Shown piece after piece: positions 1 to 8,111 of a DNA stretch of 64,000 bases (position 1 is its first letter; the number at the start of each line of letters is the position of its first letter). The position numbers were made by a program, and so were the translations under genes. Location: positions 59,606 through 123,605 of the forward strand of contig JBBIML010000007.1 in NCBI GenBank assembly GCA_037444405.1, written 5' to 3'. The notes beneath the pieces were generated by a model. That model saw only the letters and a program-made list of their open reading frames with translations. It was not told where the DNA came from and did not search any database. This stretch comes from Armatimonadota bacterium (GTDB lineage: Bacteria > Armatimonadota > Fimbriimonadia > Fimbriimonadales > GBS-DC).

Positions 1-20
1 ATCGGAGCGCCCCACTGTTG
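1..20 (-). mobile_element. 5' end of a probable second group I intron at 23S position ~2262 (truncated by window)
   Basis: rRNA similarity stops after GGUCGCCU. The following CAACAGUGGGGCG folds a P1 helix (CGCCUCA/UGGGGCG) with a U.G wobble at the exon-terminal U. Confidence 0.7.
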
Positions 21-323
21 AGGCGACCGCCCCAGTCAAACTACCCACCTAAGACTGTCTCCGAACCGGCTCACGGTTCGGGTTAGCACTTCAGCAGACC
101 AAGGGTGGTGTTCCATTGACGCCGAAGCTCCCACCTACGCTCTACATGATCTGCCAAAATGCAATCTCAGGCTGTAGTAAAGCTCCATAGGGTCTTTCCG
201 TCCCACCGCAGGTAACCCGCATCTTCACGGGTAGTACAGTTTCACCGAGAGTCCCGCTGAGACAGTGGCCCAGTCGTTACGCTTTTCGTGCGGGTCGGAA
301 TTTACCCGACAAGGAATTTCGCT

Positions 324-1080
324 TATCGCCTTACTCGAGTTTACTCGAGCGAGCCATTACCCCCCTTGTCACAGGGAACGGCTCCTGCATGTCGCCATGC
401 AGATGGGACCATATCATCACCTCGTCATTGAGGTGTCCGGCGTATGGTCTCTGAGGATTCTAATCACTGCGGAGCGGTCTTTGCGCCGATTCATGGAAGC
501 GGCTATCTGGGCTATTGTTTCGAGACCTTCTGGTGTCAGATGGTCTCCGCGTGCGACATGCTCCAGACAGCGCGCGAACTTCTCAAAGTCGTCTCGTTTT
601 GCGGTTTGGAGGGGGTATGTTTGGAAGAACGGGACGATGACTTCGAGAAGGTCCTTGCGACGGCGCACCACATAGCGATACAGGTGTTCCTTGTGGTTGT
701 CATGGCGTCGGTTTCGGATAATATTTCCGACGCCAAAGAAGTGGCGTAGGCGCTCCAAGGCGTGCAGGCTACGCTCGCCTTGGGTGACAGAGAACTCATG
801 AAACACCTGTATGCCGACTTTGTAGCCTTTGCGGAGTCCTCTATGCGGCTGCTGAATGAAGCCGATAGAGAAACAACCTTCGCCGTCTACAAAGCCGACG
901 ACCCATCCGACAGTGATTAGTCTTTCCTGCTGGTTGTCCGCACCAGACGGATTGTTACTCATAGGAAACGGTTTCGTTGAAGACAGGGAGTTTCCTACGA
1001 GTACCGCTGGATACCCCGGAGTTTCCAGCATATAGCCGGATGCGCACCACATGGTTACCCATGTGGGGGGCAGCGAAGCT
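324..1080 (-). mobile_element. Group I self-splicing intron in 23S rRNA at L1931 (757 nt)
   Basis: Exons rejoin as GGUCCUAUGGU|AGCGAAAUUCC. P1 GGUAG/CUGCC with U.G, P10 UUCGCU/AGCGAA, P3 UCCGGC/GCCGGA, P4 UGCUGG/CCAGCA, P7 GACCA/UGGUC, and P8, P9, P9.1, P9.2 hairpins are all visible. Confidence 0.96.
417..962 (-). CDS. Intron-encoded single-motif LAGLIDADG homing endonuclease (~181 aa)
   Basis: Motif WVVGFVDGEGCF, then FSVTQ, FFGVG and IVPFFQTYPLQTAK-DF; lies inside the intron; start taken at MSNNPS. Confidence 0.93.
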   Translation of the reverse strand: MSNNPSGADNQQERLITVGWVVGFVDGEGCFSIGFIQQPHRGLRKGYKVGIQVFHEFSVTQGERSLHALERLRHFFGVGNIIRNRRHDNHKEHLYRYVVRRRKDLLEVIVPFFQTYPLQTAKRDDFEKFARCLEHVARGDHLTPEGLETIAQIAASMNRRKDRSAVIRILRDHTPDTSMTR

Positions 1081-1905
1081 ACCATAGGACCGTTAGAGTT
1101 ACGGCCGGCATTCACCCGGGCTTCAGTTTGGGGCTTTGCCTTGCGGCTGACCCCTCCCCTTAACCTACGGGCATTGGCCAAGCGTCGCCCCCTATACATC
1201 GGGTTTTCCCCTTAGCAGAGAGCTGTGTTTTTGGTAAACAGTCGCCAGGCCCTCTTTGCTGCGACCTCCCTCCGCTTGGGCGTTGCAGCCTACACGGTGG
1301 GAGGCACCCCTTCTCCCGAGGTTACGGGGTCAATTTGCCGAGTTCCTTAGCGGGACTTCTCTCGCGCGCCTGAGGCTCCTCGCCTCGCCTACCTGTGTCG
1401 GTTTGCGGTACGGTCAGGTGGGTTCATCGCGGAACGGCTTTTCTCGGCTGCAGTCGGGGTCGCTTCGGTTGCCCGAGGGCTTCCTTCGTCGCCGGTGCGT
1501 TGCCTCACCGGCGAGCGCGGCCTTCCAGCTCCGCGCCCGACCCGTTCTACAGCGTCCCCGTTCGCGCTCCGCCACCTGGGGTGGGAATGTTGACCCACTG
1601 CCCTTCACCTACGGCGTTTCGCCCTCGGCTTAGGACCGCCTAACCTTCAGCGGACGAACCTGCCTGAAGAACCCTTAGGCTTTCGGCGGACGGGATTCTC
1701 ACCCGTCTTCTCGCTACTCGTGCCGGCATTCTCACTTCTGCACGCTCCAGTGGTGCTTCCGCTCCACCTTCACGGCGTGCAGAACGCTCCCCTACCGCTC
1801 ACCAGCGCAGGGCTGGTGAACCCGCCGCTTCGGCGACCAGCTTAAGCCCCCTTACATTGTCGGCGCAGGGTCACATTCGGCCAGTCAGCTGTTACGCACT
1901 GTTTA

Positions 1906-1942
<37 letters not shown>

Positions 1943-2870
1943 ACGCGACCCTACATCCTTTCACACTGAGCTGGTGCTTAGGGGCCTTAGCGGGCGGTCT
2001 GGGCTGTTTCCCTTTTGACAACGGCGCTCATCCGTCGCTGTCTCACTCCCACGCTTCCTGCTATGCCATTCGGAGTTTGGTTGGGTTCGGTAACCTGGTA
2101 GGGCCCCTAGCCCATCCAGTGGCTCTACCTGCATAGCATAGCGCGTGGGGCTGCACCTCAATGCATTTCGGGGAGAACCAGCTATCTCCGCGCTCGATTG
2201 GCATTTCACCACACTACCCCCAGTTCCTCCGAGCCCTTTTCAACGGACACCGGTTCGGCCCTCCACCGTGTGTTACCACGGCTTCAGCCTGACCAGGGGT
2301 AGATCGCGCGGTTTCGGGTCTACGCCTTGTGACTGAGTCGCCCTGTGAGGACTCGCTTTCGCTACGGCTCCGTGCCGGAGGCACTTAACCTTGCCGCTGA
2401 GCGTAACTCGCCGGCTCATTCTGCAAAAGGCACGCCGTCAGGCTGTTCCCCTTGCGGGGCATAGCCCTCCGACTGCTTGTAGGCGCACGGTTTCAGGTTC
2501 TCTTTCACTCCCCTCGCCGGGGTGCTTTTCACCTTTCCCTCACGGTACTGGTTGCGCTATCGGTGGCAAGGAGTATTTAGCCTTACCCGGTGGTCCGGGC
2601 CGATTCGCGCAGGGTTCCTCGTGTCCCGCGCTACTCGGGAGCCTGACGGGAGACGATTCCTTTTCGCATACGGGGCTCTCACCCTCTATGGCGTGCCGTT
2701 CCAGGCAGCTTCTGCTAAGGAACCGTTTTGTCACTCCCTGAGCGGTCTGCCGCCCGCTCGGTCAGGTCCCACGACCCTGGCATCGCAACGCCGGCAGGCT
2801 TGGCACGATGCCAGTTTAGGCTGTTCCCCGTTCGCTCGCCACTACTGAGGGAATCCCATTCGGTTTCTTT

Positions 2871-2905
<35 letters not shown>

Positions 2906-3193
2906 ACCCTCCGCACCGCCTATGGGTTCAGCGGAGGGTGACCACCCTTGCGGTGGCCGGGTTTCCCCATTCGGGCATCCACGGATCAACGCCTGTTTGC
3001 GGCTCCCCGTGGCTTATCGCAGCTGACCACGCCCTTCATCGGCTCCTTGCCCCGAGGCATCCACCGTGCGCCCTTAGTAGCTTGCCCACTCAGACGCACT
3101 TCTCGGTGAACACTTCGCCCGATTGTCAAGGTGCACATTTGGTTGAGAGGGGTCCGTTGCCCCTGGGTAAACCCTCGCAGGTAGGCTACAGGT

Positions 3194-3415: not shown

Positions 3416-4948
<1,533 letters not shown>

Positions 4949-6041: not shown

Positions 6042-8111
6042 CTATGGGTTCAGTTGTTTCCAGTCCGGTTCAAGGAAAACGAAGTGGGTGTCGTTATCCC
6101 GCCGGACAAAGAGGATCAGAACGGGCGGGCGCCGTTTGAGAATCTGCTCCATCACCTGCTGGAACGCTTTCGTGTCGTGGATGGGCTGTTCGTTGATGGC
6201 GAGGATGAGGTCGTTCAGGCGCAACCCGCCCAGCTGCGCCCAGCCGCCGTTGGACACCTCCGTCACGATGACGCCCGTCTGATCCGGGCGCCAGCGGTTG
6301 CGCATCCGATCCATCGGCGTCACATCGCGCACGGCGAACTCCAGCTCCTTCTGGCGCACGATTCGGCTGGTCTGGGCGGAGTCGGGCGTCGGCTCCAGTT
6401 TGACCGCGATTTCGAGCGTCTGCTCACCACGCAGGATGGTCAGCATCGCCGTCTCGCCAATCGTGAGCTGCTCGATGCGCCGCTCCAGATCGCGGGCGTC
6501 CTGCACGCGCGATGCCTGCAGCGGCTCGCCGTTGAGCGCGAGAATAATGTCGCCCACGCGCAATCCCGCCTTGCTCGCCTCCGACCAGGGCAGCACTTCG
6601 GTGATCCGGAAGCCCTTGAGGTCAGGCTTGCCCAGCGATTCGGCGACCTGCCGGGTGATGACCTGCGTGCGGATTCCCATCCACGGTTTGGGCAGCTCAG
6701 TGCTGGGGCTGGGCTCGCTCGGCGGCTTGTTGCGCACCGCGCTGACGATGATTTCCTCTTTGCGCTGGAAGGTGATGGGGATCAGCTCTTTGCCTTTGAA
6801 GGCGGCGAGCGCGGCTTGCAGGTCGTTCAGGGTGCGGATGGGTCGGTCGCCCACCTGCAGAATGACATCGCCCACGCTGAAGCTCGGCTCCGCGTTGTCC
6901 AGCGGGTAGCCCGGTCGGATGCCGGTGATATACGCGCCCTGTTTGGGCAGCTTGCGCGCGTAGGCGAAGGGGCGGGTAATCTCCCGCGCGGTGAAGCCCA
7001 GCTCGCGGAACTCGCGCTCCTGACCGTAGTACGGCTCCATCGGGGCGACAGTGAGCGTCAGGCGCAGGTGCTTGCCTTTGCGCTCCAGCTCGGCGACCAC
7101 CTGCTTGCCCACAGGCAAATCGGCTATCTGCTGATAGACCAGCGGCACCTCTTCCAGGAAGCGCACGCGCACCGGCTTGCCATCCAGCTTCAGCAGGATA
7201 TCGCCCGGCTGGAGACCGGCGCGCTCCGCGGGCGATTCGGGTGTGACGGAGGCAATCAGCGCACCCGTCTGACGCCGCAGTTTCTCCACTGGCAGCACTG
7301 AGATGCCCAGCCAGCCGCGCCGAATCGTGCCCGTTTGCAGAACCTGTCGCAGCACCTTGCGAGCAATATTGGACGGGATGGCGAAGCCAACGCCCCTGCT
7401 ACCCAGCTGATTGATGCCGATAACCTCCCCACGAAGGTTCACCAGCGGTCCGCCAGAGTTGCCCGGCAGGATCAGCGCGTCGTGTTGAATCCAGCGGGTG
7501 AGCATGCCGGAGCGGTCACCCCGCTCAAACTCGGCTGCCTCGATCTGGGAGCCGACCACATCGGTGAACACGCGGCGCGGGTTGGAGACAATCCCCAGCG
7601 TCACCGACGAAGAGAGCAGCAGCGGATTACCCATCGCCAGCACATAGTCGCCTGTCTGCACCTTATCGGAGTCGCCCAGCGGCGCAAAGGGCAGAATTCG
7701 TTTTGCCCGCCTGCCGCCCGCATCCTCTTCCGGGAACTGAATCTGCAGGATGCTGAGGTCGGTGAGAGGATCATGCACCACCACGCGCGCTTCGAACCGC
7801 TCGCCCGTGCTGAGGGTGCAGAAGATTCGCATGGCATCTTCCGCCACATGGTAGTTGGTCAGCACGACGCCGCCAGGCGTTACAATCACGCCACTGCCGC
7901 CACTCAGTCCGTACTGGGCGCGCCCGCCCTCGTAATAGCGCGTGACGGTTAAAATATTGACCAGTGCGGGGAACACACGGTCACGTGCCCGCTCCAGATC
8001 GCGGCGGAGCGTATCGCTGATGGGGCGTCGGCTCTGAATCGGCTGCGCCATCGTCAGCCCCAGCACCGTTAGCAGCAAGCCTCCTATCAGGGCAGCTCTC
8101 ATCGGCTTCAT
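6042..8111 (-). CDS. HtrA/DegP-family serine protease with multiple PDZ domains
   Basis: TNYHV, DLSIL and GNSGGPL triad motifs; repeated PDZ motifs (GLQPGDIL, GLRVGDII, GLRLNDLI). Confidence 0.92.
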   Translation of the reverse strand: MKPMRAALIGGLLLTVLGLTMAQPIQSRRPISDTLRRDLERARDRVFPALVNILTVTRYYEGGRAQYGLSGGSGVIVTPGGVVLTNYHVAEDAMRIFCTLSTGERFEARVVVHDPLTDLSILQIQFPEEDAGGRRAKRILPFAPLGDSDKVQTGDYVLAMGNPLLLSSSVTLGIVSNPRRVFTDVVGSQIEAAEFERGDRSGMLTRWIQHDALILPGNSGGPLVNLRGEVIGINQLGSRGVGFAIPSNIARKVLRQVLQTGTIRRGWLGISVLPVEKLRRQTGALIASVTPESPAERAGLQPGDILLKLDGKPVRVRFLEEVPLVYQQIADLPVGKQVVAELERKGKHLRLTLTVAPMEPYYGQEREFRELGFTAREITRPFAYARKLPKQGAYITGIRPGYPLDNAEPSFSVGDVILQVGDRPIRTLNDLQAALAAFKGKELIPITFQRKEEIIVSAVRNKPPSEPSPSTELPKPWMGIRTQVITRQVAESLGKPDLKGFRITEVLPWSEASKAGLRVGDIILALNGEPLQASRVQDARDLERRIEQLTIGETAMLTILRGEQTLEIAVKLEPTPDSAQTSRIVRQKELEFAVRDVTPMDRMRNRWRPDQTGVIVTEVSNGGWAQLGGLRLNDLILAINEQPIHDTKAFQQVMEQILKRRPPVLILFVRRDNDTHFVFLEPDWKQLNP

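Follow-up and report, generated by a model that had tools for sequence, protein, structure and literature searches.

An adenosine-terminated group I intron at position 1931 of a probable Armatimonadota 23S rRNA gene belongs to a cross-phylum clade of introns ending in A or C

In a probable Armatimonadota bacterium, the sole 23S rRNA gene is interrupted after U1931 by a mobile group I intron that belongs to the L1931 lineage, carries a gene for a single-motif LAGLIDADG endonuclease and ends in adenosine. The terminal guanosine (omega-G) of group I introns, near-universal though not included in the Rfam model, is held to be invariant in splicing, as it occupies the guanosine-cofactor pocket in the second step. 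Here the intron ends ...GGCGAU-A immediately before the exon sequence AGCGAA, and this guanosine is absent. It is, in our judgement, fairly probable that the intron splices exactly, with its 3' splice site positioned by the P9.0 and P10 pairings.

The stretch of DNA that was analyzed (the window) is 64,000 nt long, and the rRNA operon lies at its left end on the minus strand, with the 16S gene at 3417-4948, two tRNA genes and the 23S gene running downward from 3087; all features described below lie on this strand. Exon 1 of the 23S gene (1081-3087, from the gene 5' end to U1931) was placed by Rfam LSU_rRNA_bacteria and by the junction sequence. This model gave 1854.5 bits across window positions 1-3087, and what remains of the gene outside the insert scores as a normal 23S rRNA. 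Exon 1 ends ...AACGGUCCUAUGGU, after which a 757-nt insert splits the gene, beginning AGCUUCGCUGCCCCCC and ending ...CUCGAGUAAGGCGAUA before AGCGAAAUUCCUUGUCGGG; exon 2 begins AGCGAAAUUCCUUGUCGGGUAAAUUCCGACC. This puts U1931 at window position 1081, the intron between 1080 (its first base) and 324 (its final A), and the start of exon 2 at 323. E. coli numbering was counted from the conserved H69/H70 sequence, and the coordinates of exon 2 were converted by us. Exon 2 runs from A1932 onward for 303 nt (21-323), with the second intron beginning past position 21, and opens with the P10 target, the six bases AGCGAA (323-318). Intron-free relatives, for example G004, read ...CCUAUGGUAGCGAAAUU at the site. 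The assembly, a draft of 40 contigs that is 98.9% complete, holds one 23S gene. At window position 1084 (23S position 1928) the window's family has U instead of the A found in most bacteria (CCUAUGGU vs CCUAAGGU), and this U was also seen in family members that lack the intron (G004).

As AGC stands at both ends of the insert, the window genome considered alone would allow boundary shifts of up to 3 nt, and one of the alternative registers has a final G but lacks the U at the 5' splice site. The relatives settled the register. Their introns start with ACC (G001, G012 and G009), GGAU (G014) or UGCC (G005), yet AGCGAA follows every one of them, so that only the register with U before the intron and A as its last base restores the rRNA. 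In G001, G012, G009 and G014 the intron ends ...AUA directly before AGCGAA. Across the family the L1931 intron was present in 9 of 29 genomes (the window genome, G000, plus 28 scored), with A as last base in eight and C in one (G005), while the bases before the terminal A varied (GGCGAU, GGUCAU, GACGAU or GGUGAU). The intron of G005 (locus L010), the one that ends in C, has a decayed endonuclease ORF with in-frame stops and a shorter insert. A 1224-nt contig from an independent assembly (probable source run X1) spans window positions 21-1244 with 0 differences, and no letter other than A was found at 324 among the table rows listed for the four sequencing runs compared. The A at 324 is therefore confirmed as genuine and is not an assembly slip.

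The intron (324-1080, 757 nt) was matched to the group I model RF00028, with its boundaries set by the relatives. The match (32.2 bits, E 3e-6) falls below the gathering score of 50 because the inserted ORF (546 nt) splits the model. The ORF-less sibling intron of G012 scored 61.7 bits (E 2.9e-15), above the gathering score. P1 (1069-1083) pairs exon GGU and intron AGC (1083-1078) with GCUGCC (1074-1069) across a UUC loop, placing U1931 (1081) in a wobble opposite G (1071) with G-C pairs on either side, as in all complete relatives examined. The guide pairs with only three exon bases (GGU) in this intron; the 3-bp exon pairing with GCC in P1 recurs in 36 of the 49 A-ending relatives and in 5 of the 9 that end in G. 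The P10 guide UUCGCU (1072-1077) makes 6/6 Watson-Crick pairs with AGCGAA (323-318) and is kept in 9/9 family introns. P2 (CCACAUGG-GUAA-CCAUGUGG, 1047-1066) is a hairpin for which the relatives show compensatory variants (CCUCAUGG/CCAUGAGG, CCUCGUGG/CCACGAGG and CCUUGUGG/CCACAAGG).

The 3' half of the catalytic core (407-449), taken from an RNAalifold consensus, comprises P7, in which GACCAU (449-444) pairs with AUGGUC (412-407) and the canonical guanosine-binding G-C pair is present, the P3 3' strand (441-436) and the P8 hairpin (435-418), followed by J8/7. Next come the P9.0 5' strand AUC (404-402) and the P9 hairpin UGCAUG-GCGA-CAUGCA (401-386), which together occupy 386-404; P9 is almost invariant in 30/30 aligned introns. 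Positions 334-384 hold two peripheral elements, P9.1 (384-380 with 355-351, plus an inner stem), which shows compensatory changes, and the P9.2 hairpin CUCGAG-UAAA-CUCGAG (349-334), for which relatives have CUCGAC/GUCGAG and CUCGGC/(A)CCGAG. Last, at 324-327, are the P9.0 3' strand GAU (327-325), complementary to AUC, and the terminal A in the omega position (324), which were assigned from the sequence, the relatives and the independent contig. The first-pass annotation had read a group I intron after U1931 with a final A, a P1 wobble at U1931, the P10 and P9.0 pairings and an intact G-binding pair in P7, and all of these were recovered here.

The LAGLIDADG homing endonuclease ORF (417-962; 181 aa plus stop) matches the single-motif Pfam family LAGLIDADG_1 (PF00961) with E 2e-19 and 70.8 bits. 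It overlaps the ribozyme core, in that its first ~21 codons coincide with the P5/P4/P6 strands, its body lies in the P6 loop, its last ~14 codons coincide with P6'-P7-P3'-P8, and its UGA stop codon falls within J8/7. Relatives that lack the ORF retain the P5/P4/P6 and P7-P8 strands and close P6 by a short hairpin.

Two further introns were seen in the same gene. Window positions 1-20 are the start of a second group I intron, in the H81 loop region at about E. coli position 2262, which runs off the left edge of the window. In the flanking locus L006 (G000:C7:52000-63000) this intron extends over about 6699-7626, with an RF00028 match of 58.3 bits at 7370-7636; its 211-aa ORF matches LAGLIDADG_2 (E 1.4e-47), and its end, ...CAAUUG, has the normal terminal G. 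A third group I intron lies outside the window at about 5680-6350 of L006, after U2604, between ...GAGACAGU and UCGGUCC; it has a 198-aa LAGLIDADG_1 ORF related to that of the L1931 intron and ends ...CAGAUUG. Three endonuclease-bearing introns are thus found in a single 23S gene, and only the one at L1931 lacks the final G.

How widespread this ending is was assessed in a scan of 185,579 species, each represented by a single genome, for A or C immediately preceding AGCGAAAUUCCUUGUCG; the scan returned at least 120 matches. Among the 120 matches listed, a filter placed 106 in 23S context (82 with A and 24 with C), of which one resembles chance; the other 14 are chance matches elsewhere. The matches listed therefore contain at least about 105 23S introns, about 81 of them with a final A and 24 with a final C, and cover at least about 19 phyla as judged from record titles, with 62 rows from Actinomycetota. 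At all 40 scan loci (40/40) for which both junctions were in the fetched DNA, the insert follows ...CCUA(A/U)GGU and its start is group I-like; one locus, L080, contains the exact G009 intron. An ORF of at least 140 aa is kept in 26 of 32 long A-ending introns, and in each of four complete genomes bearing an A- or C-ending intron the 23S segment is single. In many of the genomes with A- or C-ending L1931 introns, the 23S sequence is interrupted once more, some 17-23 nt downstream, at the end of ...CUUGUCGGGU or ...GGGUAAG (loci L031, L035, L081, L085, L086, L097, L114, L129, L132, L139 and others), which suggests further insertions near positions 1949-1953.

Samples that had not been chosen by the trait contained both kinds of ending. 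Inserts at the site in 400 other genomes of the window's phylum ended in G in seven cases, A in one and C in one, and those in 120 other genomes from the order of an Acidimicrobiaceae genome ended in G in three cases and A in three; pooled over the two samples, the final G was absent from 5 of 15 L1931-site inserts. Three genomes of sister families in the window's own order have a related L1931 intron ending ...AAUG, with a normal terminal G. One of these, G054, is unpublished and contributes one row each to the tree and to the core and P10 counts; the statement on the sister families stands without it, G058 being nearly identical.

A tree of 84 introns was built by a quick search with the last six bases omitted; it has several long branches, and its deep nodes are unsure. 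The clade of the window's family (support 100) is nested in a clade (support 99) of 32 introns, mostly from Actinomycetota, of which 26 end in A, five in C and one in G, and the family does not group with the G-ending introns of its own order. Given this nesting, the A is probably inherited and is not a private mutation: the intron appears to have moved between phyla, and that of the window's family probably arrived already ending in A from a donor in another phylum. Origin of the A from the G-ending introns of the same-order sister families was rejected on the basis of the tree. The first-pass annotation had taken the intron for an independent omega-A ribozyme, a view that does not hold for a member of a large cross-phylum L1931 clade ending in A or C. 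Mapping the last base onto the tree requires at least 15 changes, eight of them forced by well-supported branches for A alone, and the last position thus appears labile between A, C and G. On the tree, the intron of locus L066 falls within the Armatimonadota family clade of the window; this locus is a short contig of 2.4 kb titled Thermomicrobium sp., which may therefore be mis-binned.

We compared 79 distinct complete introns (56 ending in A, 14 in C and nine in G) and found two core strands, CCUCAGAG(A/G)C(C/U)AUACGCC and GA(U/G)AU(G/A)GUCC, to be almost invariant. In the RNAalifold alignment, made from 30 A/C-ending introns, the G-binding G-C pair of P7 is present in 30/30 and one P7 pair is changed from C-G to U-A in 5/30. 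Double-sided compensatory changes were found for 12 of the 26 predicted pairs, including 6 of 7 pairs in P8 and pairs in P9.1. The complementarity of P9.0 exceeded that of shuffled controls, with a mean of 2.05 of three possible pairs vs 1.72 ± 0.07 over 56 distinct combinations and 0 of 5000 shuffles as high, though the sequences are related rather than independent and relatedness inflates such tests. Taken together, these patterns of substitution indicate that the ribozyme is under selection in introns that end in A or C.

In engineered Tetrahymena mutants, compensating changes are made in the guanosine pocket. A compensating change in the pocket that could recognize A or C was not found among the 79 introns or in the 30-intron alignment, and the P7 variants GGCC and GACC were found in A-ending and G-ending introns alike. 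That A and C replace each other freely also speaks against a specific recognition of the last base. A stronger P10 was considered as compensation for the absent G. The mean number of contiguous P10 pairs was 4.43 in A-ending (n = 49), 3.36 in C-ending (n = 14) and 3.0 in G-ending introns (n = 9, from one phylum); this is a weak trend only, with a small G sample and with long P10 pairings not exclusive to A-ending introns.

Contigs from RNA libraries were also searched. A 1302-nt contig from a hot-spring RNA library (X18), at depth 817, shares about 94% identity with the window (63 differences and 7 gaps) and spans positions 20-1088, covering exon 2, the whole intron and eight exon bases (CCUAUGGU), followed by 199 bases unlike the window. 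It bridges both L1931 splice sites unspliced. In two relatives, G015 (L011) and G006 (L015), a second intron ends ...CAACUG directly before CCUAUGGU, that is after U1923, leaving an 8-nt exon between the U1923 and L1931 introns. As these genomes have an intron at the same point, both introns are probably present unspliced in the X18 contig. Depths of 1341-3190 were found for exon-only contigs of the same library, and the X18 contig may represent abundant unspliced rRNA, precursor RNA or DNA in the library. The joint 323 to 1081 (a 757-nt skip) was absent from the 15 joints listed, of 20, across four of the 20 runs found; contigs can show the presence of a joint but not its absence. Two runs, X6 and X18, have loose ends at 323 that looked spliced, but the exon-1 sequence on them (CCUAAGGU, with a different H69) comes from other organisms. 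A contig in X6 that covers 1078-1237 and has 12 further, unmatched letters fits a ligated junction or an intron-free relative equally well.

Exact splicing, the reading that we favor, would take its usual first step, an attack after U1931 in P1 by a free guanosine that P7 binds. In the second step P9.0 (GAU/AUC) and the 6-bp P10 (UUCGCU/AGCGAA), rather than docking of a terminal G, would hold the 3' splice site, and U1931 would be joined exactly to A1932 to give a normal 23S rRNA. Changing the terminal G of the Tetrahymena ribozyme to A blocks exon ligation, and we counted this against exact splicing. In its favor, the repeated invasion of essential, often single-copy rRNA genes suggests that these introns are harmless on arrival and hence that they splice, and A-ending introns that are spliced elsewhere (ND5-717, PMC8146996; the Coxiella intron, by the title of its report) provide a precedent for splicing without a terminal G. 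A possible though doubtful alternative is that the second step fails for lack of the terminal G, so that the intron is retained or completes step 1 only; it would then stay as an insertion, or on the 3' fragment of a split rRNA, and be tolerated by the ribosome. This would account for a contig that bridges both splice sites at a depth comparable in order of magnitude to that of the exon contigs, for a last base that varies between A and C among close relatives as often as the tree requires, as if unrecognized, and for a G-binding site that is unchanged in A/C-ending introns. The 23S L1931 intron of Simkania negevensis, the subject of a 1999 paper by Everett and colleagues (J Bacteriol 181:4734), is reportedly not spliced out of the rRNA, and it resembles the window intron in lying at the same site of a bacterial 23S gene and in carrying a LAGLIDADG gene. 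With this reported retention and the unspliced contig, the premise of the first-pass annotation that the intron must splice or the operon copy is dead no longer covers the options.

Several observations speak against retention. The X18 contig also keeps the upstream intron, which ends in a normal G in relatives, and so bears a closer resemblance to precursor RNA or DNA than to mature rRNA; elements that serve splicing only (the core and P9.0/P10) are conserved with compensatory changes in A/C-ending introns; the presence of the clade in single-copy rRNA genes of so many phyla is hard to reconcile with an element that disrupts the subunit-interface region; and A-ending introns elsewhere are spliced (PMC8146996). 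Splicing at a neighboring G, 327 or 322 (G1933), would supply an ordinary terminal G within 3 nt of the predicted site, but we regard it as very improbable. As the first-pass annotation had pointed out, the mature rRNA would then gain AUA (G at 327) or lose AG (G1933) instead of reading GGUAGCGAA, which would alter a universally conserved stretch; moreover, the upstream G is absent or differently spaced in relatives (GGUCAUA, GGUACUA, CAUUC), and P10 and P9.0 indicate a junction between A and A in all family members. We give a negligible chance to an error of sequencing or assembly, or to a dead copy of the rRNA gene, in this 40-contig draft genome, as the independent contig is identical over 21-1244, the A is common to eight related genomes, and this is the sole 23S gene of a nearly complete assembly and scores as normal over the rest of its length.

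L1931 introns with single-motif LAGLIDADG genes, assigned to subgroup IB4, have been described from Thermotoga, thermophilic Synechococcus, Simkania, plastids and mitochondria (Haugen et al., 2007, PMC1995217; PMC11019260). The window intron agrees with these in its site after U1931, in the kind of endonuclease gene, in an ORF that extends from a peripheral loop into the core and in length (650-760 nt), but it has a P2 hairpin, whereas the cyanobacterial L1931 introns are described there as being without P2. The IB4 label of the window intron is taken from this literature on L1931 introns. Archaeal IB4 introns are known at LSU/1931 and LSU/1923, with both 8 nt apart in one record (Nawrocki, Jones & Eddy, 2018, PMC6125680); this pair resembles the arrangement in G015 and G006, although its hosts are archaeal and not bacterial.

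Comparable in its ending is the Coxiella burnetii intron Cbu.L1917, called "self-splicing" in the title of its report (Raghavan et al., 2007, J Bacteriol 189:6572), which like the window intron is a bacterial 23S group I intron without the canonical terminal G. The first-pass annotation had cited it as the well-known omega-A exception and had noted the different site. It stands as a precedent, but not as the sole one, as the terminal G is also replaced by A in the ND5-717 intron of sea-anemone and hexacoral mitochondria, for which ligated exons were found in vivo (PMC8146996). Cbu.L1917 does lie at a different site, 1917, and is placed in subgroup IB2 by PMC11019260, where L1931 introns are called IB4; it is described as the peculiarity of one species, whereas at 1931 the ending is the trait of a cross-phylum clade. 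ND5-717 lies in a protein-coding mitochondrial gene, is strictly vertical in descent, has no homing endonuclease and is unrelated to the window intron in site and host.

Apart from Coxiella, a literature search yielded no account of bacterial rRNA introns, at L1931 or elsewhere, with a terminus other than G, and the portion consulted of a paper on rRNA insertions in CPR bacteria leaves the last nucleotide undiscussed. A-ending introns are thus already known from Coxiella and coral mitochondria as isolated cases; what is new here is the scale at one rRNA site, the fact that C occurs besides A, and the spread across phyla. For the spreading L1931 clade as a whole, with its A- or C-ending members in more than a hundred species and at least about 19 phyla, we consider the chances slightly better than even that exons are ligated exactly, and that docking of a terminal G is dispensable when P9.0 and P10 hold the 3' splice site. 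A non-G end is here the rule for a whole widespread clade in an essential gene and not an isolated exception. If these introns are retained instead, the ribosomes of all lineages in the A/C clade would work with a ribozyme of 250-800 nt in domain IV, which would be equally remarkable. For annotation, boundary rules that require a final G misplace these rRNA introns. The sister introns ending in A, C and G form a natural matched series of ribozymes for studying the choice of a 3' splice site without G, and the same series is suited to asking whether the ribosome excises or tolerates such introns.
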